A stretch of DNA of 64,000 nt from Catajapyx aquilonaris (GCA_000934665.2 JYFJ02001879.1:1-64000); one strand, 5' to 3'; positions 14,312 through 63,537 are shown, numbered from the stretch's first letter. Translations and numbers: made by a program. The notes: generated by a model from the sequence alone, not told the origin.

Positions 14312-14375
<64 letters not shown>

Positions 14376-14766
14376 TTATTTATTTATTTATTCCGATACC
14401 CCTTTCCCTTTTTGGCGGACAAGTCGATATATCGAAAATAGGAAAACCGATATCGACAACCAACGTCGAAAATATCGAATCAAAGTCGATATATCGAAAA
14501 TAGGAAAACCGACATCGACAACCGACATTGAAAATATCGAATCGAAGTCGATATATCGAAAATCGGAAAACCGATATCGACAACCGACGTCGAAAAATAT
14601 CGAATCGAAGTCGATATATCGAAAATCGAAAAACCAACATCGGCAACCTACATCGAAAAATCGTGATATTCGATACATCGCACACACCAGGGGTCGGATA
14701 TCGCAACTTAGATATTAGGAAAATATCGTATCGACAGTCGATGTATCGAAATATCGCACAGCCCTA
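13945..14766. mobile_element. hAT-like MITE with internal ATATCGA-rich tandem repeats, interrupted by a SINE
   Basis: TIR TAGGGCTGTGCGATAT / ATATCGCACAGCCCTA; flanks CTCAGGGC and CTCCTGGC (degenerate 8-bp TSD); about 60-bp internal repeats at 14420-14660. Confidence 0.75.
14037..14373 (+). mobile_element. tRNA-derived SINE family A with (TTA)n tail
   Basis: A box TGGCGGAGGGG, B box GGTTCGAATCCC, body GTGGTTTTCTGTGGTTTCCC, 3' end ...GGGGTA then (ATT)n. Confidence 0.85.
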
Positions 14767-17895: not shown

Positions 17896-18863
17896 CAGTG
17901 GTGCCTCGTACTTCGAACTGAATTCGTTGCAGGAGGCCATTCGAATTCTGAATTGTTCGAAATCCGAGTCAATTTTCCCCATGAGAAATAATGGAAAGTG
18001 TACAAAAAAAAATATAATAAAGATGCGAAAAACCGCGTGTCCGTATCTCTAACAGCGCGCCAGGATTCGTCGAACGAAGACGAGTCAGCGCACCCGATTT
18101 TGGCTCGCTGCTGCCCAGAAAATGGCGGGAAACGTAATGACCCCCAGCCCTCTTAACCCGTTGCCAGACCATTTAAACAATACCAATTTTGATATCTGTA
18201 GACCTACTTAAACAGCAAATAATAGTCTACACGTACTTTAAATCAAACATTACACGATTAAATGCCATCAATAATAAATGAAAGCAATAAATAAAATATT
18301 GTACGTAAACACTGGGGGGAAAAATAATGAAATTTTGCATTTACTGCAGCCCGTGAGGGGTGGCTGGTGGAGAGGAACAGTAATGTTACTGTTTGGAAGG
18401 GAGGTCACCTTCCGGATGTTATACCAAGTAGTTATAAACAAACATACACTCTTAACCATTTACCTTCTCTGGAGAGGGTATGAAAGTGGCCATTTTTTAC
18501 CTTACATTGTAGGGTAAATATTCTTGGGTAAATTGATTCTAAGGTAAATTTTGCATGTATTACCTTAGAAAATATAGGGTAAAAAAGAGGCCCTTTTACC
18601 CTCTATTTTCTAAGGTAATACATACAAAATTTACCTTAGAATCAATTTACCCAAGAATATTTACCCTCTATTTTCTAAGGTAATACATGCAAAATTTACA
18701 TTAGAATCAATTTACCCAAGAATATTTACCCTACAATGCAAGGTAAAAAATGGCCACTTTCTTACCCTCTCTAGAGAAGGTAAATGGTTAAGAGTGTACC
18801 AGAACCAAAGCGATAAAAGCACAGACAACAGACGAGCCAAGTTTGAAGTATGAGGTTCCACTG
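17896..18863. mobile_element. pogo/Tigger-like non-autonomous element with nested insertions
   Basis: TA-CAGTGGTGCCTCGTACTTCGAAC ... GTTTGAAGTATGAGGTTCCACTG-TA. Confidence 0.65.
18447..18796. mobile_element. Fold-back MITE with TA TSD (TIR CACTCTTAACCATTTACC)
   Basis: Near-perfect arms over 120 bp flanked by TA; a one-armed copy lies at 58334-58492. Confidence 0.85.
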
Positions 18864-20089: not shown

Positions 20090-20950
20090 GGTATATCGAT
20101 GCTGCCATTGTATTTTTCGATGAATAGTAGCTGTCCTTGCATTTTCGATATATCGGAAGATACAAGAACAATGCACAATATACTAGACTAGAATAACCTC
20201 GATATATCGAGAATATATAGAACAGTGGATGTGTCAAAAAATACAAGGGCAGCTCGTATATCAAAATTGTTCTCGTATTTTACGATACATCTATACTCTG
20301 TTCTTGTTGTTTCGATGAATCGTCGCTGTCCTTGCATTTTCGATGTAACTAATAGGAAAATACAAAAACAATATATTTGTACAATACACAATGTACAAGG
20401 ACAGCCACGATCTATCGAAAAAAAAAAAACAGGAACAAAGTAGATGTATCGAAAAATACAAGAACAACATTGATATACCGAAAAATACAATAGTATAGCC
20501 CTTGCCTTTTCCGACGAATCTAGTCTGCCCTTGCATTTTTCGATATATCTAGACTGTTCTTGTATATTTCGATACATATTGGCTGTCCTTAGATGGTCGA
20601 TATATCGAGAATGCCCTAGATTTTCCGACGTATCAAATAGTGTCCTTGCATTTTTTGATGTATCGATTCTGTTCCATACACCGTGGCTGTTCTTGTATTG
20701 CCGATATATCGAGAGTGCCCTAGCCTTTTCCAACGAGTCTGTCCTTGCATTATTCGATACATCTAGTCTGTGCTTGTATTGTCGATATAACGAAGGGGTC
20801 CTTGACTTTCCCGACGTATCGAGTCTGGTCCTTGCATTTTTCGGTATATCGAGTCTGTTCTTGTATTGTTCGATACATCGTCTGTTCTTTTTTTTTCGAT
20901 ATACCGTATCTAGTCTGATCTTGTATTTTTCGATAGGCTACATAGAGGCA
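20090..20950. repeat. Degenerate ~25-bp TCGA/TATCG-rich tandem array in both orientations
   Basis: Units such as GTCCTTGCATTTTTCGATATATCGAGTCT. Related CG-rich arrays occur at 15290-16760. Probably MITE subterminal repeats. Confidence 0.65.
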
Positions 20951-53767: not shown

Positions 53768-56674
53768 ATGGATTCAACAACAGTGAATGTGAGTATGGAA
53801 AAATGAAACTGATATTATGTCACTGACATAATTCTGGTTATGTCCTCATGCAGCATGAAAATGGCATAAGAAGTGCATCAAGTTTGATAAAAACATACGA
53901 ATCTGAATTCCGTCTGAATCAGCTGCAACAGTTGCTAGCATTGTACGAAGAGAATCGGTCCAATCTGATTCAATGCCTCCAGAGAGATTACAATACCGTA
54001 AGTACCCTGTGTTTGTTCCGAAAAAGTGTCAACCTACAATCGGCATCCCCTCCCCCTTCCAGACGTTTGATATCCAAGATGTGACCAGCCTGATCCAAGA
54101 GGTGAGAGCAACAATCGAGAAGATCCAAGAATGGACCGGCACCAAGAGGATGTCAGGATTGCTCTCGATGAATGTGGTCACTCTCAAGAAGGAATCTGTG
54201 GGCTCTGTCCTCATAGTGTCTGACCCTCACTATCCCCTGCACCTAAGCCTGCTGGCATTTCCTGCTGCCATATGCGCCGGAAATGTGGTGGTCATCAAAG
54301 CTCCAGATGGAACACCACTTTTCACCAGAGCCATCACCCAGCTGTTGCCCAAATATTTGGACCCGGTAAAGAAATTTGATATATGCCAAAAGATCAGGCC
54401 CGAAAAAGCAAATAAACAAATCGTAGAGCCAATAGAAATCCATTGTTCAATATTTGGCATTTTCAGCTACGAATAAATAATTAAACTATTGATAGTAATT
54501 AAAATAATTATTTAATTAAAATAATGCAAGTAATTAATTATATTATAATGGCGCAATTAAAATAATTATTTAATTAAAATTATAAAAGTAATTAATTATA
54601 ATATAATGACGCAATTAAAATAATTATTTTATTACAGTGATAAAAGTAATTAATTATAATATAATGGCGCAGTTAAAATAATTATTTAATTAAAATTATA
54701 AAAGTAATTAATTATAATATAATGACGTAGTTAAATAATTATATAATAATAGTTATATAATGATTAAACTAATTATTATATTATGACATATTTAAAATAA
54801 TCCAATTATTATATTATGACATATTTAAAATAATCCAATTATTATATTATAACATAATTAAGATGTTAATATAATAATACTTAATCGTTTTATTAGAATT
54901 AAAAATATTGTATGATAAACTGCAATTACATGATAATTAGAATGATATAATATAGCCATCATAATAAAACTAATATTAAAATAATTATACCGTACCCTAG
55001 ATAATAGTAATTAGACTATTAATAAGTAATAAAAATAATCTTGATATAAACAAACAAACAAATAAAAATTGATATTCTTCTCTCTTGATTGGTGAAGTTC
55101 ATTTAAGACCTAAAGATTCATAAAGAGCCAGAAAGTCAGAAATTTCTGCCTTCACTAGCACGTTAGCACGTGAAAGGATTAATTTGTGGATTTCTCTGTT
55201 GTATGACGACAAAATTGTGATGATAGGGCCTACGGTATATTATTTATTAGTTAATGATCGATTAATTATTATTTACCACCTCATATCATTCCCTTCGAAC
55301 TATGCCCCTATTTTGATTACACAGGAAATCTACCGGGTCATTCCTGGCGATTCGGATGTGGACACAGTGTTGGGAGGTCATTTCGATCGCATCGTGGTGA
55401 TGGGCAAAGCAGGGATCATACGCAAGGTGTACGCGGCTGCTCAAAAGGAACTGACCCCAGTCACTGCGGTCACCAACGGGAAAAAGTAAGCCACATTTTG
55501 TCCAAACTATTCTCATTTATTACCTTCATTATTTTCAGCCCAGTTTATATTGACGACTCTATTGATATCGAAGTAGCAGCCATCCACATAATTGAAGCAA
55601 AACTATCAAGTTTTAGCAGACCATGCGTAGGTCCTGACTACATTCTGTGCAACCAAGTAGTACAAGAGCATCTCATATCCACGGTGGTCAAGATGTCAGG
55701 TCAAATTGCCAACAAGTTCTGGCCAATTAGCAGCAAGGAAAATTTCGAGTAAGTTTTTTATCGAATTGACATAACATTCTGATTACCAATATTGTTGTTT
55801 ACATAGCCGATTGAAGTATCTGCTGCAAACTACAAAAGGACGCATTTTGTTAGGCGGACACATCGACGAGCAAGGACAACGTATATCTCTCACCATTGTT
55901 GCGGACGTAGCCAAAGACGACCCACTTTTTCAGGAAGAGTTTTTGGGCCCCATTCTTCCAATTGTTGAAGTGAAGACAGTGTACGACGTCATATCACTTA
56001 CTCGTAGAACTCGGTAAGTAATTATCACCTTATTATCTCACTGAAGTTCTAGTGTACCGCTGGGCCGTTACTCCCCCCTACCGTTATCGCGAGCACTAGC
56101 GACATTGCGCTATTGGTGGTTAAGACATGAACCTCGAAGTTGTGAACTGTCGCAATTTTTTTTAACATTTCAGAGATCGTGCAAATTCCGGCAAGTGGAC
56201 AGATTACAAGATGGCTGCAAATGTATTGTACGCCTTTACAACCAGGAGGATCGCCCAAGTGCGTCTGATGCAAGGGACATTGGCAGCCAACATTGTATTC
56301 AACAGCACCAATATTCAAAGTAAGTACCCAACATATGAAGGGTGTGGTAGAAAAACGTGACAACACACATTTTTATGTCGCTGTTACTGTGGGAATTACA
56401 CTGATAGATGTTATTTCCAGACGATGTCAGCAACTACTTTCTGTGTGGAGAAAGTGCTTACAAGTTATTCACCAAAACCAAGGTGGCGAATAGGCTGCCC
56501 TTGAAGCATGTGTCTGAACCTTCTGACAAATCATCTGTTCATGAAGAGTCTTGTACCAACAGTAATTATTTTGGGACCAAGCAAGTTCTGGACAGCACCA
56601 TCCCTCATAGGTTAAAGATAATAGCAGTTTCTATATTCGCTTTGTTCATAGCTCATTTCTTAGGATGGCAGTAG
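53768..56674 (+). CDS. ALDH3 (fatty aldehyde dehydrogenase)-like protein 1, 481 aa, degenerate active site, C-terminal TM anchor
   Basis: Exons 53768-53788, 53854-53997, 54063-54365, 55325-55485, 55539-55748, 55807-56013, 56174-56319 and 56421-56674. All are GT-AG and total 1446 nt, open. ALDH3 motifs: GSVLIVSDPHYP, AAICAGNVVVIK, PKYLD, LTPVT..GKNPVYID, CVGPDYILC, QEEFLGPILPI. Confidence 0.9.
54495..54740. repeat. ~58-bp AT-rich tandem repeat expanding intron 3 of ALDH-like gene 1
   Basis: AATTAAAATAATTATTTAATTAAAATTATAAAAGTAATTAATTATAATATAATGGCGC, about 4 copies. Confidence 0.8.
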
Positions 56675-58333
56675 AGGTCGCTTGACTAACAGAAAAATTG
56701 AGCAACTTATATATCAACTACTAGATAGTAATCTCCAGAGCCGAATATTGAACATTATATCATTTTTAAGTGAAATATTTTACTGCATTTTTGTATCGAA
56801 TAGTTGTATTAAATTAGTGTTACAACCATTTTTTTTCAATAAAGAGGCAAATGGTTGTACTATTAATTCGCTAAATAATTGGCGTTAAGTGGGGAAATTC
56901 TGTTAAGTGGTATTAGTTGACGCTATTACAGCATAGAAGTACACAAGGAAAAAAATAGTAGGAAATGTTCACTGTCAGTTCTGGCAGAGTCATAACAAAT
57001 CCAGTTCTTAAACTTCGTTGTTACGGTTTTTTTCTGTCATTAAACTTTCTCCTTGAATATTTGTGACCTCAAGGCAAACTGAATTGACCTTCTGGAAGCA
57101 ACCAGCAATCTGGTTTTCATAGGTATTGAATAAGAAGAAAAAAAAGAGAGCACTTTTTGAGCATCATACCGTGCGCAGGCAATGTTTTTGCAATATGACG
57201 GTCACGTAGTTTTACACATTACGTAACATTAAGCAAGCATTGTAAATCAAAACAACATTTCCAGGATATCTTCTAAATTTAAATAACAATTAAAATAAAC
57301 CCACAAATGCGCAATAGGTATAAAATCCCCGAGAAAAACTACGCACTGTTGAAGGCCAATGGTAATTGCTCAAAATAAAATAACCGTGAAACAGACGTCA
57401 TGTCAACTAATTAGCACTGAAAACTATAAAGATGTCATCAATTAGCAACCTGGCTGTAAATTTTTGACATTTACACTTGCTTGTGGCTTCGTATTTAAAA
57501 AAAATAAACAATCATTGCTTCCCATAAGTATGTGAAATTGGCCGATTGTCCTAAAAAATATTCAGGTACCGGTATGTGATATCAGGAGCAAAATATTCCA
57601 AATATTTCAGGGCGGAAATCCGTTTGTTGCAATCAAAAAATTTCCCTTTCGTTCAAATGTTGTTAATAACAACACCGTGACTAACATATTAAAATTTTGA
57701 TTTACTTTCAAGCCTCTTTCGCAAGATTGGCTTTTCTCTCAACGCTATAGTGCAATAAACGTCCTTCAATATTTAAAGAGAGACTATTTATATTCACTAT
57801 TTCCTTCATAAAACACTGCGTAGTGCACTCATTAAATCATCTAGTATTTTCCAGACAGATTTGATGCCGGTTTTTTCTGGTTCAAGTAATATGCATCATA
57901 AACATAGGGTTGCATTTCCCCTTTTTTTCGCAGTCAGCTCACAAGATGACTGACCTACAATTTTTAAAGATGACAAAAAAAAGTTGGAATTTGTCTAGGG
58001 AAACCCCCTATTTCAAGGACGCTGAACCTCACGTGTACAAAGGTGCACGCAATCACTTTTCTAGTTGTAAATGATTCTGTCACGAGTACACAGTAAAGAT
58101 TGATGTATTAACTCTTAACACACTGAAACTCGCCCATTAAAAACGTAAAATGCATTTTTTTAAAAAAAAATCGTTGTGCATTATTTCTTATGAGGTAAAG
58201 TTTTTTTTACAAATTTCTCCGAAAGTTTCTCTCAGAAAATGTCAAGTGCTTACCAAATAATTCAGAATTAATTGGATGCATCATTTCTGTAACAAAGGTA
58301 CAGCATATGTCAACAATGCAATCTTCAAGTGTA

Positions 58334-58492
58334 CACTCTTAACCATTTACCTTCTCTAGAGAGGGTAAGAAAGTGGCCATTTTTTACCTTACATTGTAGG
58401 GTAAATATTCTTGGGTAAATTGATTCTAAGGTAAATTTTGCATGTATTACCTTAGAAAATAGAGGGTAAAAAGGGCCTCTTTTTTACCCTCT
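58334..58492. mobile_element. Single arm of the 18447-18796 fold-back MITE
   Basis: TA-CACTCTTAACCATTTACCTTCTCTAGAGAGGG... near-identical to the 18447 arm. Confidence 0.8.
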
Positions 58493-59603
58493 ATACCCCC
58501 CAATATATTAAACACTTCAAAATGCGCACCAAACCTGAAAAAAATAATTACTGGAAACTATTCGGTTCAAACTACTGTAGTTTAGAATGAGCCAGTTTTC
58601 AGCAGATATGTCCACATAATGCAAACGATGCAGCATAGTTTAATAATTCATCACAAAATATTAGTTAGTGAAGAGAGTCATTGTCAATGTTCCGCACGGG
58701 TACCTTTATATACCTTCTTGAATAAGGAGGTCACAGTGAATTATGGTATACATCTGCTACTGGCAGTACAAAAACTCACTTGCCCAGATATTGCACAACC
58801 AGATCTCTCTTGGTGTATTGTTGGCAGAAGGTCGACCTTGTATTATTACAAAAAAATAAATAACACTCGATTACATCATTAATCCACAAGATTACTCGAT
58901 AGTAAAAAAAGTTACAGAATCAAACGGTACATTTTATTATCCGTATAAGTTGTACAGTAAACAAAACTACGCACAATTTTGATTTTGTAAATGACAACAC
59001 ATGCCTTACGCACGGTCAATTAGCATATGTAATGCAAACTATTCTTCAGCTTTTGTCAAATTTGTTACGGTTTTTGTCTCCGGTTGGTGAACTGCCTCAC
59101 CTTGAAGTAGGCTACACTGACCTTGTGGAATATAACGAACCACACACGAGCTAGCAAAAAAAAACATTCCTTTTGCTAATAATATCTGATGCTAATATTC
59201 TCGCCATTTTTTGCAAATTAGCACTATCCGGTCATAAATTTTTTTCTCAATATAATTATTGTTAATGAAATCACAATAGTAGCATAATTGTTGGCTCAAA
59301 TATTACTAACACTAAAATATGTGATCTTACATCATAAACAGGTTCTTAGCACAAGGATCGCTAATTTTTTTTTTGCTAGTTCCTTGATTGGATGGGCATA
59401 CTTTTAAGGGAAAGGTCTACACAGTGCGTATTAAGTATATCTAACTACTTTTTTTCACTATATGGGCCGGTTTTGTCTTTAGAGACGAATAGAAAGCTGG
59501 CCATATACTGACCAACCTCATTGGCTGTCCGCTCACCCAGTTCATACATGTTGTTGCGTTAGACACGAGAGGACGTGTAGTGTCTTCAATCGAACTGTGC
59601 GAG

Positions 59604-61364
59604 ATGGAGTTGAAAACAAAGTCTGGCCTATTGAAAGCATGGGATCGGCCATTTCGTCTAGAACAATTGCAAAAATTGATTGCATTGTACGAAGACAACA
59701 TATCCACACTGATTGAATGTCTTCAGTCCGATTATGGCATGGTAAGTACACACACGATTCTAGTTACAAAAATCAGTAACTAAGTGTAATTTATTGTAGG
59801 GATCATACGCTCACCATATAAGGTCGCTGATTAGCGAGGTCAAAGAGTGTATCAGGAACTTCCATATTACAAACACCAAACGGACATCTGGACACTGGAT
59901 GTCCAAACAAATTGTGACAGAAAAGCATGAAGCGGCAGGATTGGTACTGATTGTGTCAGATAGCAATTACCCATTGCCACTCTGTTTGTTGTCATTGCCT
60001 GCAGCCATTGCTGCCGGAAATATGGTGGTCATCAAGCCATCGTTATGTACACCGGAGTTCAACAAAAAAATGGAGTACTTGATGTCGCAATGTTTGGACC
60101 AGGTTGGTGACACTGATAATTTAAAATAATTTAAAATAAATTTATTCCGAACAATTTTTGAAGGACTGCTACCGGATAGTGTTGGACTTGTCTGTACCGG
60201 ACGTTCTGGCCTGCCGTTTTGATCATATCCTGTGCATGGGAAATGCGAAATTCGTACGTGTTGTGTACGGTGCAGCGCAGGAGCAACTGGTACCCGTGAC
60301 GATCGTAACAAACGGAAAAAAGTACGTAGGATTTTATTAATCATTCAGAAAAATATTGTTGCCATAATATTTTGAGCGTAAAAGCAAATATTGTTGCCAA
60401 CTTAATAGCCCCGTGTATGTGGACGACACCTGCTGTATTGAAGATGCTACAAGGCAAATCATACATGCCAAAATGTCCAGCTTGAGTCAACCGTGTAAGT
60501 CACCCGATTACATCATGTGTACTGAGCCTGTCCGGAACAAAATTGTGGACGAGGCTACCAGAATTTTGGGACAATCAGACACATTCGTACGAATAGCAAG
60601 CGAGGACAATTTCAGGTTGGTATAACTGGAGAGCTTACCATGCTAATGTACTGATACATGTGTTTCAGACAATTGAAGCGGCTTTTGGGTGACACAAAAG
60701 GACATGTGATTGGCGGACAGTTCGACGAAGGACAACGAATGTCGCTCACAATTGTCACGGGTGTCACAAAAGATGATCCGCTTTGGACAGAAGAGTTTGT
60801 GGGTCCTCTACTTCCGGTGATTACAGTGGCCAACGCCTACGACGCCATATCGTTTGTTCGTAACAAGTCAGTCAACGACACTTAAACTGACAAATACAAT
60901 TTACTAAACGAGCATACTTTTCAGGCAATGTATGGGAACATTTTGGCCTGACCATACGTTAAAACCGCTGGCATTTTACGCTTTCACGACCAAGCGGTTG
61001 ACACAGATGCGTCTGATGGATGGTATTGTGGCGCAGAGAATTTTTTTCAATACAATACAAGCCATAGGTAAGTACTTAGTTACCATGGTACTTACCTCAA
61101 GTAATATAACACTGCTTTACAGACTGCGACACCGAGGCTGCTAGAGGACTGATCACAAGTGGACAAAACGCATTTGACATGTTCAGCAGAAGCAAAGTTG
61201 TGTATCGATGCGTACCTGAACCTCTACCTTCCTTAGAGCACGATAAGTCAAACACTAATAATCGGAAATGGCAAATTTTACCTGCTAACATACCTGTTGC
61301 TTTCAATTTGAAGATTGTGGCTGTTGCTTTGTTGGTTCTATTCCTGGCCCAAATGTTTGGATAA
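59604..61364 (+). CDS. ALDH3-like protein 2, about 462 aa (start uncertain), degenerate active site, C-terminal TM anchor
   Basis: Exons 59604-59741, 59800-60102, 60164-60321, 60409-60615, 60669-60866, 60925-61067 and 61123-61364 (1389 nt, open). Intron positions and phases match gene 1. The frame is also open upstream to an AG at 59540, so an extra first exon is possible. Confidence 0.88.
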
Positions 61365-61713
61365 AAAATGTTAAGTTCGACCAAATTTATTGAGATGTGT
61401 CATAATGTTTATTATGCTAATTGACATTGATGGCTGTCAAATTAGTACGCTTTAGAGGCTATTTGTCAGGTTTGTAAATTGATATTAAAAAATATTATTC
61501 GTAAAGTGCTTAAGAGGTGGTCATTAATTTCAATTTATTTCTAACGTTGATTACAGATTTGCATAAATATTAAAGTCACAACTGAATTAACAGGTGATTT
61601 TCAATACAGTATTTTTTTATAAAATCGTGGGATTACTTTAACAGAAAATTGACTTCATTATCAGAGAGGATGACACTAATGTAACTATGCAAATGCAAAT
61701 GTATTCTATTGTG

Positions 61714-63537
61714 CTACACGATAGTGAGCCCAAAAATACCTACCAATGACACAAGTATTAGACCCACAGCCACTTTCATAACACCAAAATCACTGGATGG
61801 TACCAATTGTGATAGGCCGTCACCAGAAAATCCAGACTTGATCCAAGAATCTCGATGAGAAATCTTGATTCTCGTGAGCAACTTGTAGGCCTCTTCTCCT
61901 CTTATCACGTACATTTCGCTCGGAAGTGCGGAACTCTTTGAATCCACTGTTACAATACATTTTAGATCATTAGATTTCACATTGGATTTTTGTCTGTAAA
62001 AACATGCATACATACCGGTTGTGTCGTTGAATCGTATCATGTCCGATGGAATTGTCTGTAACATTCTGATACAAGGTATTCGCTTACTGATAAATGCGTA
62101 AGTCACCATCGCTCTCAGCTTGTAATCAGGCCATGTGGAATCTGTTACCTGCCTGTAATTAAATACCACAGTAAGCTTCTTACTCAACAAGACATGTCAA
62201 TAAGTCACCCACATCTTTCGGATCTGAATCATTGCGTCATATGAAGTGATCACAGTCGTAATAGGCAGGATGGGCCCTGAGAAATTTTGAGTCAAAAGCG
62301 GATCATCTTTAGGGACGTCAACAACAACAGTCAGTGCCATTTGTCTACTATTGTCGTCCACATCTCCACCAATGACAATCCGACCTTTTGTGGACCGCAG
62401 AAGTGTCTTCAATTGGCTGCAAATTAATTTATTAGCATCTTAATTTGCAGGTTACAGGATATCACCTACGTAAACTGGTCCTCCGAATGTATGTGGCAGA
62501 AATGGGGTTTACCATAGCCCATTTCCTTCATCATGGCCACAATTTTGTCCTGCAATGTGGCAGAACACAACACATAGTCTGGAGCTATGATGGGATACCT
62601 CAAATTAAGCAGCTTTTTCTGAAAGATGAACTTGGCTGTTGCCTGGACATCACAAGATTCGTCCACAAAAACAGGGCTAAAGAGGACAAAAGACATTTGG
62701 TATTATCACATTGCGTAATTTATAACTCCACACCTACTTCTTTCCTCTGATACAACCAGTCACCGGAACACAATCGTTGTAAGCAGCCTTGTAGACCTTC
62801 CGACCCAACTTCTCCTTACCCATGTACACGACATGATCGTAGCTGAATGTCAAAAGCTTGTCCAGAAGTGATTCGTCGCCATGGACGACGTGAAAACAAT
62901 TCTGAAAGCAAATGCTGGTAAGTACACAAATAATTCTGGGCGTCGAAAGTGCTCACCTCATCAAGATACTTGGGAATTAATTCGGCAAACTTCGTTGAGG
63001 AAAGTGGAGTGACCTGCGAGGGTTTGACAATGACTGTGTTCCCTGCAGCAATGGCAGCAGGAAGAGGTAAGAGGGACAGGTACAAAGGATAACAATCGTC
63101 TGCTACTATCAGCACCACTCCTACACCTTCCCGCTTTTGGGTGACCATACTGTTGGAAAATATGGTTTTGGTGACACGTTCAGTCCTGGTCCATTCATCG
63201 ATGTGACTGATGCTGTCCTTAATTTCTGCGATCAGGTAGTCGATGTCCTTAAAGTCTTCCTTCTGCGTACAGTACATGTTAAGCAATGCAGTAAATTGTC
63301 ACATGTTGCTACCTACTGCGTGATAGTCGCCTTGAAGACAGTCCATCAGAACATCTTTGTTTTCGCAGCAAAGTTGTAACAGTTTTGTCAGCTGAATGCG
63401 ACGAAATTCAGCTGAACTTAACTTTCCAACATTTCCTTTATGGCGTGCCGCTTCCACCACCTGCAAGTAATTAAACTAATAATTAGACTAGGCCTAATAA
63501 AGTTAATTACTGATCGTACCTTAACTGCTTGATCCAT
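61714..63537 (-). CDS. ALDH3-like protein 3, 470 aa, catalytic Cys absent, C-terminal TM anchor
   Basis: Exons 63537-63520, 63460-63317, 63262-62957, 62901-62738, 62676-62470, 62416-62213, 62152-62016 and 61946-61714 (1413 nt, open). Intron phases 0,0,0,2,2,2,1 match gene 1. Motifs: EGVGVVLIVADDCYP, AAIAAGNTVIVKPS, IIAPDYVLC, FSGPILPI. Confidence 0.9.

Follow-up and report, generated by a model that had tools for sequence, protein, structure and literature searches.

Three divergent ALDH3-like genes

The window examined here is a 64,000-nt stretch of the Catajapyx aquilonaris genome (GCA_000934665.2, JYFJ02001879.1:1-64000), and its right-hand 10 kb holds a cluster of three genes that resemble class-3 aldehyde dehydrogenases (ALDH3) while departing from them at catalytic positions. 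After reading all three frames across the region, we joined the exons of each gene by coordinate only. Gene 1 occupies 53768..56674 on the plus strand, where eight exons (53768-53788, 53854-53997, 54063-54365, 55325-55485, 55539-55748, 55807-56013, 56174-56319 and 56421-56674) give an open frame of 481 amino acids. Gene 2, also on the plus strand at 59604..61364, has seven exons (59604-59741, 59800-60102, 60164-60321, 60409-60615, 60669-60866, 60925-61067 and 61123-61364) and an open frame of 462 amino acids. Gene 3 lies on the minus strand at 63537..61714, convergent with gene 2 and with 349 bases separating the two stop codons; its eight exons (63537-63520, 63460-63317, 63262-62957, 62901-62738, 62676-62470, 62416-62213, 62152-62016 and 61946-61714) form an open frame of 470 amino acids.

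No internal stop or frameshift interrupts any of the three genes, and all 20 of their introns have GT..AG ends. The six introns of gene 2 match introns 2-7 of genes 1 and 3 in alignment place and in phase (0,0,2,2,2,1), and genes 1 and 3 have an extra intron after a tiny first exon of 6-7 codons. Most introns measure 53-160 nt. The cluster's one long intron, intron 3 of gene 1 (959 nt), is occupied in part by AT-rich tandem arrays at 54497-54861, which consist of a 58-nt unit present 5.2 times and a 33-nt unit present 2.8 times. At the protein level the pairwise identities among the three genes are 212/455 (47%), 183/460 (40%) and 174/446 (39%). A preliminary description of the locus had proposed three intact reading frames with canonical splice sites, common intron positions and strong mutual divergence, and coordinate splicing together with alignment confirms it. 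A tblastn search with the three proteins found no further copy elsewhere in the window, and with six canonical ALDH3 queries 62 of 63 high-scoring segment pairs fell within 53.7-64 kb, the remaining one having an E value of 0.87.

Family membership was examined with individual exon open reading frames (ORFs) rather than whole spliced proteins as the units of the Pfam search. Six of 11 exon-ORF translations matched the aldehyde dehydrogenase family PF00171 (Aldedh), five of them above the 23-bit cut-off: two from gene 1 (32 and 34.1 bits), two from gene 2 (34.1 and 29.7 bits) and exon 3 of gene 3 (48.7 bits). One further exon ORF fell below the cut-off at 20.0 bits, and the other five ORFs matched nothing. 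Against solved chains, the seven best matches of gene 3 exon 3 were all ALDH3A1, class-3 or fatty aldehyde dehydrogenase (FALDH) chains (E 2e-13 to 4.6e-12, 53.6-49.2 bits); ALDH1A1 reached 24.9 bits, and the other ALDH classes trailed class 3. Profiles of three further exon sets also matched class-3 chains end to end. Over four exon regions, the solved structures matched best are FALDH (ALDH3A2, 4QGK) and ALDH3A1 (1AD3, 3SZA). Class-3 chains lead for the profiles of the motif 3-5 exon and the motif-6 exon, and for the motif 7-8 exon benzaldehyde dehydrogenase 5UCD scores highest (51.9 bits) with FALDH second. The class-3-type sequences that we inspected likewise come from the best 150 of 2570 library matches.

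The most hydrophobic 17-residue segment of each protein, by Kyte-Doolittle mean, is its extreme C-terminus: residues 462-478 of 481 in gene 1 (2.32), 441-457 of 462 in gene 2 (2.58) and 454-470 of 470 in gene 3 (2.68), reported as lying at most 4 residues from the end. The corresponding hydrophobic tails map to 56600..56671 on the plus strand for gene 1 (its last 24 codons, a candidate tail anchor), to 61290..61361 on the plus strand for gene 2 and to 61717..61788 on the minus strand for gene 3. Genes 1-3 are about as long as FALDH and ALDH3A1, have a single ALDH domain and share their fold-core motifs; with FALDH, which is bound to the endoplasmic reticulum (ER) according to the review PMC8160307, they also share the C-terminal hydrophobic segment. 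The three genes are thus class-3 ALDH homologues and probably tail-anchored, as the earlier assignment to ALDH3 and the earlier suggestion of a membrane anchor had it, the former borne out by the best solved matches and the latter supported, as a predicted anchor, by the segment at the very C-terminus.

Catalytic and cofactor positions

Position numbers were obtained by counting residues of the 452-residue class-3 chains as printed in the alignments, and we take WNYP, KPSE, YTGS, LELGGKSP, GQTCVAPDY, EEIFGP and PFGGVGxSG as the canonical ALDH3 motifs. We further assume that Asn114 is the oxyanion residue and that Glu209, Lys137, Glu333 and Phe335 are equivalent to Glu268, Lys192, Glu399 and Phe401 of ALDH2. 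A canonical set for comparison comprised 23 ALDH3 sequences taken from 150 listed matches, 440-560 amino acids long and containing ELGG[KM] and FGG, and it is therefore canonical by construction.

The motif LELGGKSP reads AVTNGKNP, IVTNGKNP and GCIRGKNP in genes 1, 2 and 3, an order kept below. In an ungapped alignment the codon for the general-base Glu209 falls at 55469..55471 (plus strand), 60305-60307 (plus) and 62752-62754 (minus), where it specifies Val, Val and Cys, and Gly211 is replaced by Asn, Asn and Arg. No Glu or Asp occurs anywhere in this motif-5 octet in any of the genes. The exon profiles align with the solved class-3 chains without gaps across both LELGGK and GQTC, and therefore the glutamate has not merely been shifted. 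At GQTCVAPDY the genes read SRPCVGPDY, SQPCKSPDY and RYPIIAPDY; the codon aligned with the nucleophile Cys243 (55624..55626, plus; 60494-60496, plus; 62589-62591, minus) still encodes Cys in genes 1 and 2 and encodes Ile in gene 3. WNYP has become PHYP, SNYP and DCYP, with Trp lost from all three, and the aligned Asn114 codon (54228..54230, plus; 59965-59967, plus; 63092-63094, minus) specifies His, the retained Asn and Cys.

The cofactor site is altered as well. YTGS is replaced by VMGK, CMGN and YMGK, and the Thr186 codon of this loop (55400..55402, plus; 60236-60238, plus; 62821-62823, minus) encodes Met in all three genes, at a position where the canonical ALDH3 sequences have Thr in 23 of 23 cases and Met in 0 of 23. 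Gly187 is kept throughout, Ser188 is Lys, Asn and Lys, and Gly192 is Ile, Val and Gly. KPSE appears as KAPD, KPSL and KPSQ, so that Lys137 is kept in all three and Glu140 is Asp, Leu and Gln. At EEIFGP, which reads EEFLGP, EEFVGP and QNFSGP, the aligned codons for Glu333-Ile334-Phe335 (55937..55945, plus; 60793-60801, plus; 62278-62286, minus) give Glu-Phe-Leu, Glu-Phe-Val and Asn-Phe-Ser; Glu333 is thus Glu, Glu and Asn, and Phe335 is Leu, Val and Ser. The motif-10 loop PFGGxGxSGxG has no counterpart in any of the genes, with gaps or unrelated residues in its place. We also observed that intron 7 of gene 3 (61947-62015, 69 nt) is in frame and free of stops, which leaves an ORF unbroken from exon 7 to the stop (61714-62196); its retention would add 23 residues exactly at the former site of the PFGG loop.

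Glu209, Thr186, Gly211, Phe335 and the PFGG loop are accordingly lost from all three genes in comparison with FALDH and ALDH3A1, from which the cluster differs also in the loss of Asn114 from genes 1 and 3 and of Cys243 from gene 3, in an insertion of about 12 residues and in an identity of 28-36%. Gene 3 is the most degenerate copy, with Cys243, Asn114 and Glu333 gone as well. What is kept belongs to the fold core (AAGN-x4-K, G-K-N-P, PDY, GP-LP and YAF). In PMC8160307, Cys243 is given as the catalytic thiol of ALDH3A1, and Glu268 in ALDH2 numbering is said to hold the water molecule responsible for deprotonating the thiol and for hydrolysing the thioester. The same source has nicotinamide adenine dinucleotide (NAD) bound by Lys192 and Glu399, with the nicotinamide stabilised by Phe401. 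Every motif string of the preliminary description is present in genes 1-3 as it was written, and the residue states bear out its claim that the general base, the PFGG loop and much of the cofactor and nicotinamide site have been lost. It had itself raised the objection that the glutamate and the glycine loop might only be displaced; with an ungapped alignment at LELGGK and GQTC and an octet lacking any acidic residue, this objection does not apply. We infer that genes 1-3 no longer carry out aldehyde oxidation dependent on NAD or its phosphate, NAD(P).

The proteins could still be enzymes with a rebuilt, NAD-independent site that performs thiol-based ester, thioester or acyl-transfer chemistry or captures aldehydes covalently. 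Cys243 persists in genes 1 and 2, gene 1 has a His at the neighbouring position 114, and gene 3 has Cys at both 114 and 209. Furthermore, Met186, Pro242, Phe334 and the Asn after G-K are invariant despite 39-47% identity, which suggests a new pocket and not decay, and the esterase activity of ALDHs is described as cofactor-free in PMC8160307. By the same account, however, the esterase reaction relies on those very active-site residues, and all three genes lack the water-activating Glu. The residues at positions 114, 209 and 243 differ from gene to gene and thus do not make up one common new catalytic set, and the loop that closes the site is missing. We consider a rebuilt enzyme of this kind unlikely.

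Shared ancestry, constraint and transcription

The departures from canonical ALDH3 are largely common to the three genes. Among 53 columns that are at least 95% conserved in the canonical set, genes 1, 2 and 3 keep 26, 31 and 28; all three genes have 20 of the kept columns in common and have lost the same 16. In a leave-one-out control, each canonical sequence kept at least 84% of the columns, with a median of 98%. A quick maximum-likelihood tree (IQ-TREE, 39 rows) places genes 1-3 in one clade with a Shimodaira-Hasegawa-like approximate likelihood-ratio test (SH-aLRT) value of 100, on a stem of 1.58 substitutions per column compared with a median terminal branch of 0.92. Within the clade, gene 1 groups with gene 2 (SH-aLRT 89); this quick tree gives the clade no settled position among canonical ALDH3. 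The three proteins are identical at 128 columns, 31 of which hold a residue found in at most 10% of canonical sequences; these derived invariants include Met186, Pro242, Phe334 and a Leu replacing the Pro of "PT". The insertion of roughly 12 residues, before motif 9, is also common to them and contains an invariant Trp and an invariant Asp.

Between copies, the proportion of non-synonymous differences (pN) is 0.35-0.41, compared with a saturated proportion of synonymous differences (pS) of 0.70-0.74. Because the genes form one clade, share 31 derived invariants and show pN below a saturated pS, we conclude that the rewiring predates the duplications and has since been conserved. As judged from these comparisons, the loss is a single event that occurred before both duplications, with fast change followed by a new state held by selection. 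The earlier proposal that the shared losses preceded the duplications is upheld by the clade, its long stem, the 16 jointly lost columns and the derived invariants. The companion proposal that selection kept the frames open agrees with the pN and pS values and with the transcript evidence described below.

Transcript evidence comes from X5, a public run of the same organism from a study different from that of the DNA runs and with its kind recorded as '?'. Contigs of X5 leave out introns with GT..AG ends, and on that ground we treat the run as RNA-derived. All six predicted joints of gene 2 (59741>59800, 60102>60164, 60321>60409, 60615>60669, 60866>60925 and 61067>61123, plus strand) lie on one 1365-nt X5 contig. 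For gene 1, intron-skipping contigs cover three of seven introns, at the joints of exons 5/6, 6/7 and 7/8 (55748>55807, 56013>56174 and 56319>56421, plus strand), and a loose contig end at 55485, the end of exon 4, runs on with the first letters of exon 5. None of the splice joints of genes 1 and 2 was found in the DNA run X1, which served as the comparison. With X5 read as RNA-derived, both gene 1 and gene 2 are transcribed, and their splicing follows the models. Three sites distinguish the gene 2 contig from the window, all of them synonymous, and the listed X5 pieces of gene 1 show no differences. X5 cover is absent over gene 3 and the 5' third of gene 1, and we draw no conclusion from this absence.

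Downstream of gene 1, positions 56675..57417 on the plus strand are a probable 3' untranslated region (UTR). An unspliced X5 contig at 56829-57417 has one difference from the window, at 57386, X5 depth extends from the stop codon to about 57671, and several AATAAA or ATTAAA sites occur in the region. Over gene 3, the DNA run X1 yields extra short contigs at exons 8, 4 and 3 (61872-61910 and 62737-63274) with 3-12 differences each. The depths of variant and matching contigs there sum to about twice the neighbouring level, and such depths are not copy numbers. Their source may be either another gene-3-like copy outside this locus or a haplotype that has diverged strongly.

The variants bear on the possibility that the cluster consists of decaying relics, gene 3 above all, in which drifting duplicates are transcribed as noise. 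Across exons 3, 4 and 8 of gene 3 they amount to 18 non-synonymous and 6 synonymous codon changes, in the copy that lacks Cys243, Asn114 and Glu333, and the evidence for constraint on this gene is mixed. Relics would also fit the very long branches, the identity to canonical ALDH3 of 28-36% compared with 45-54% among canonical sequences (about 50% within the group containing the beetle protein and about 45% to a vertebrate-like one), and the lack of an orthologue in the large collections searched. Against decay stand frames of 462-481 codons that are free of stops and frameshifts although the copies differ from one another by 0.47-0.60 non-synonymous substitutions per site, the intact splice sites of all 20 introns, a pN about half of pS, the 128 columns invariant in all three genes, a coding-like GC content by codon position (0.50/0.37/0.50), and the correct splicing of genes 1 and 2 with only synonymous differences. 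Taken together, these make it very unlikely that the cluster is a set of relics.

Searches for relatives recovered canonical proteins. No orthologue of genes 1-3 was found in large protein collections: a word-indexed search of longer proteins for gene 1 exon 3 scored 0 of 578 candidates, and one with a family-specific exon alignment scored 0 of 41. An alignment of the motif-6 exon scored 13 of 467 candidates, of which we inspected the top five; four have canonical motifs, and the fifth, P0154, lacks the motif-5 Glu and is otherwise of canonical type. An exhaustive search with gene 3 exon 3 gave 2570 matches, with none like genes 1-3 among the best 150, where [WF]N[YF]P occurs in 136 and the other 14, each of which was read, are fragments or near-variants. 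P0153, by its source name a putative aldehyde dehydrogenase of the beetle Trypoxylus dichotomus, is a canonical, tail-anchored invertebrate ALDH3, as are P0050 and P0155. Full-length BLAST with genes 1 and 2 has these three among its top matches, and the motif-6 exon finds its best named match in P0153, with 51% identity over 68% of the exon. This beetle protein supplied the sole source name among the matches and, together with the short introns, hints at an arthropod origin. P0153-P0155 end in a hydrophobic C-terminus like that of genes 1-3. P0153, P0050 and P0155 keep WNYP, LELGGK, GQTC, EEIFGP and PFGGVG, whereas genes 1-3 do not, and they are about 50% identical to one another and about 30% identical to genes 1-3. 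P0154 itself is a library protein of the canonical, tail-anchored type that reads IKLRGK for LELGGK, and so lacks the general-base Glu, while keeping WNYP, GQTC, EEIFGP and PFGGVG; it is 50-54% identical to the beetle-like group and no nearer to genes 1-3 (29-31%).

The remainder of the window adjoins the ALDH3-like cluster as a gene-poor, repeat-rich stretch. Among 148 stop-to-stop ORFs of at least 75 amino acids tested in 1-53700, no Pfam family was found. Tandem repeats in this part include a 62-nt unit at 14421-14663, (ATT)n at 14312 and 26831, and a 29-nt unit at 20734-20935. Between genes 1 and 2, at 58334-58664, lies a very high-copy element with an X1 word depth of about 18,420 compared with about 30 nearby. 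It has 33-nt inverted arms (58357-58389 and 58463-58495) that are 82% complementary, and an X5 contig at the element joins opposite strands. The element resembles a repeat of the miniature inverted-repeat transposable element type, and similar end sequences recur in a 65-nt repeat at 18560-18732.

A probable pseudoenzyme family, proposed to act at a membrane

We favour the view that the cluster is a lineage-restricted, tail-anchored pseudoenzyme family derived from ALDH3 and kept for another job, which we regard as probable. The catalytic residues are missing and the genes are intact and constrained, with expression seen for genes 1 and 2 only. An ordinary set of active class-3 ALDHs, made odd only by misalignment or wrong exon choice, would accord with the retained fold-core motifs and Lys137 and with Cys243 and Glu333 in genes 1 and 2, but is highly improbable given transcript contigs that confirm junctions near the critical motifs (in gene 2 and in exons 4-8 of gene 1), gap-free exon profiles against LELGGK and GQTC of solved chains, a motif-5 octet with neither Glu nor Asp, and the missing PFGG loop.

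On the pseudoenzyme interpretation, an ancestral tail-anchored class-3 ALDH gene would have lost NAD(P)-dependent aldehyde oxidation together with the water-activating Glu209, the Thr186/Ser188 cofactor loop, Gly211, Phe335 and the PFGG loop. The rewired gene would then have evolved fast before settling on a new conserved set of residues, and two tandem duplications would have followed, with gene 3 splitting first and genes 1 and 2 later. Lys137, on the adenosine side of the cofactor site, is kept in all three copies, as is the hydrophobic tail, the part by which related proteins are inserted into the membrane of the ER or of peroxisomes. The proteins may act at a membrane without turnover. 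The most plausible mechanism would be the holding of hydrophobic aldehydes or lipids in a retained substrate funnel, where Cys243 of genes 1 and 2 could capture aldehydes reversibly as thiohemiacetals. Class-3 ALDH enzymes work as dimers, and for this reason the proteins might also form dimers, either among themselves or with a subunit of an active ALDH3. Any specific binding or dimer mechanism of this sort is offered tentatively; we place much less confidence in it than in the pseudoenzyme interpretation itself and think it less likely than not.

Several observations weigh against the pseudoenzyme interpretation. Genes 1 and 2 retain Cys243, Lys137 and Glu333, which leaves some chemistry possible, and the "dead" status of all three genes is read from sequence. 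The RNA origin of X5 is deduced solely from intron skipping; gene 3 as a whole and the first three introns of gene 1 are without transcript support, and the models of the 5' exons in genes 1 and 3 are provisional. Corrected dN/dS is about 0.17-0.29, a rough long-term average that is silent on the present, dS being saturated. For gene 3, the excess of non-synonymous changes in X1 makes the variant pair look close to neutral. Finally, the protein searches yielded no orthologue with which to gauge conservation across species.

A bolder form of the proposal joins several of these elements in one claim. Once dehydrogenation had been lost, the former active site would have been rebuilt as a new, fixed pocket from Met186, Pro242, Phe334, the Asn after G-K and the insertion with its Trp and Asp. 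The old catalytic positions would now hold thiols and an imidazole: gene 1 combines His114 with Cys243, and in gene 3 both 114 and 209 are Cys. The family would on this view be of a new type, tethered to a membrane and reacting with aldehydes or lipids independently of NAD, whether by sensing or carrying aldehydes covalently or by catalysing acyl transfer. It would be confined to one animal lineage and diversifying by tandem duplication. As a joint claim we think this quite unlikely.

Among known systems, ALDH16A1, the recognised pseudoenzyme of the ALDH superfamily, is the nearest conceptual relative, in a different ALDH family and with a different architecture. PMC8160307, citing Liu and Tanner 2019, presents it as an ALDH-fold protein without a catalytic residue and as a proposed binding protein. 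Genes 1-3, by comparison, have a single class-3 domain of 462-481 amino acids, with the Glu lost in all and the Cys kept in two. ALDH16 proteins have about 800 amino acids and include a degenerate second domain, and in mammals the Cys is absent; the 767-residue chains 6MVR and 6MVU, which we take to be ALDH16, score 37 bits against gene 3 exon 3 compared with 53.6 for class 3. With a single domain and class-3 chains outscoring 6MVR and 6MVU, the cluster is not of the ALDH16A1 type.

ALDH-derived crystallins, such as the omega-crystallin of cephalopods and scallops and corneal ALDH3A1, offer another instance of the fold in a non-catalytic role. Omega-crystallin is inactive and derived from class 1, and crystallins are abundant and soluble. 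A structural role of corneal and lens crystallins is noted for ALDHs in PMC8160307. A soluble, crystallin-like role is unlikely here because of the membrane-type C-terminal tail, and genes 1-3 are class-3-like. Enzymes resembling methylmalonate-semialdehyde dehydrogenase also lack the Glu, and we rejected coenzyme A-dependent chemistry of their kind, the cofactor loop, Phe335 and the PFGG loop being gone too. In the literature searched (a full-text search judged from titles and the starts of abstracts), we found no class-3 tail-anchored ALDH pseudoenzyme.

Pseudoenzymes are common in general and are already known in the ALDH superfamily, which tempers the interest of the cluster; what would be new here is the derivation of an ALDH pseudoenzyme from class 3, together with its tail anchor, its tandem triplication and its apparent restriction to one lineage. 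Annotation pipelines would probably call all three genes "aldehyde dehydrogenase family 3" and so overstate the detoxifying capacity of the organism. If our interpretation is true, the cluster would be a natural experiment in which one enzyme scaffold lost its chemistry, was re-optimised around 31 shared derived invariants and radiated locally, with two members expressed. It would thereby provide a tractable case for asking what an ALDH fold does at a membrane without aldehyde turnover.

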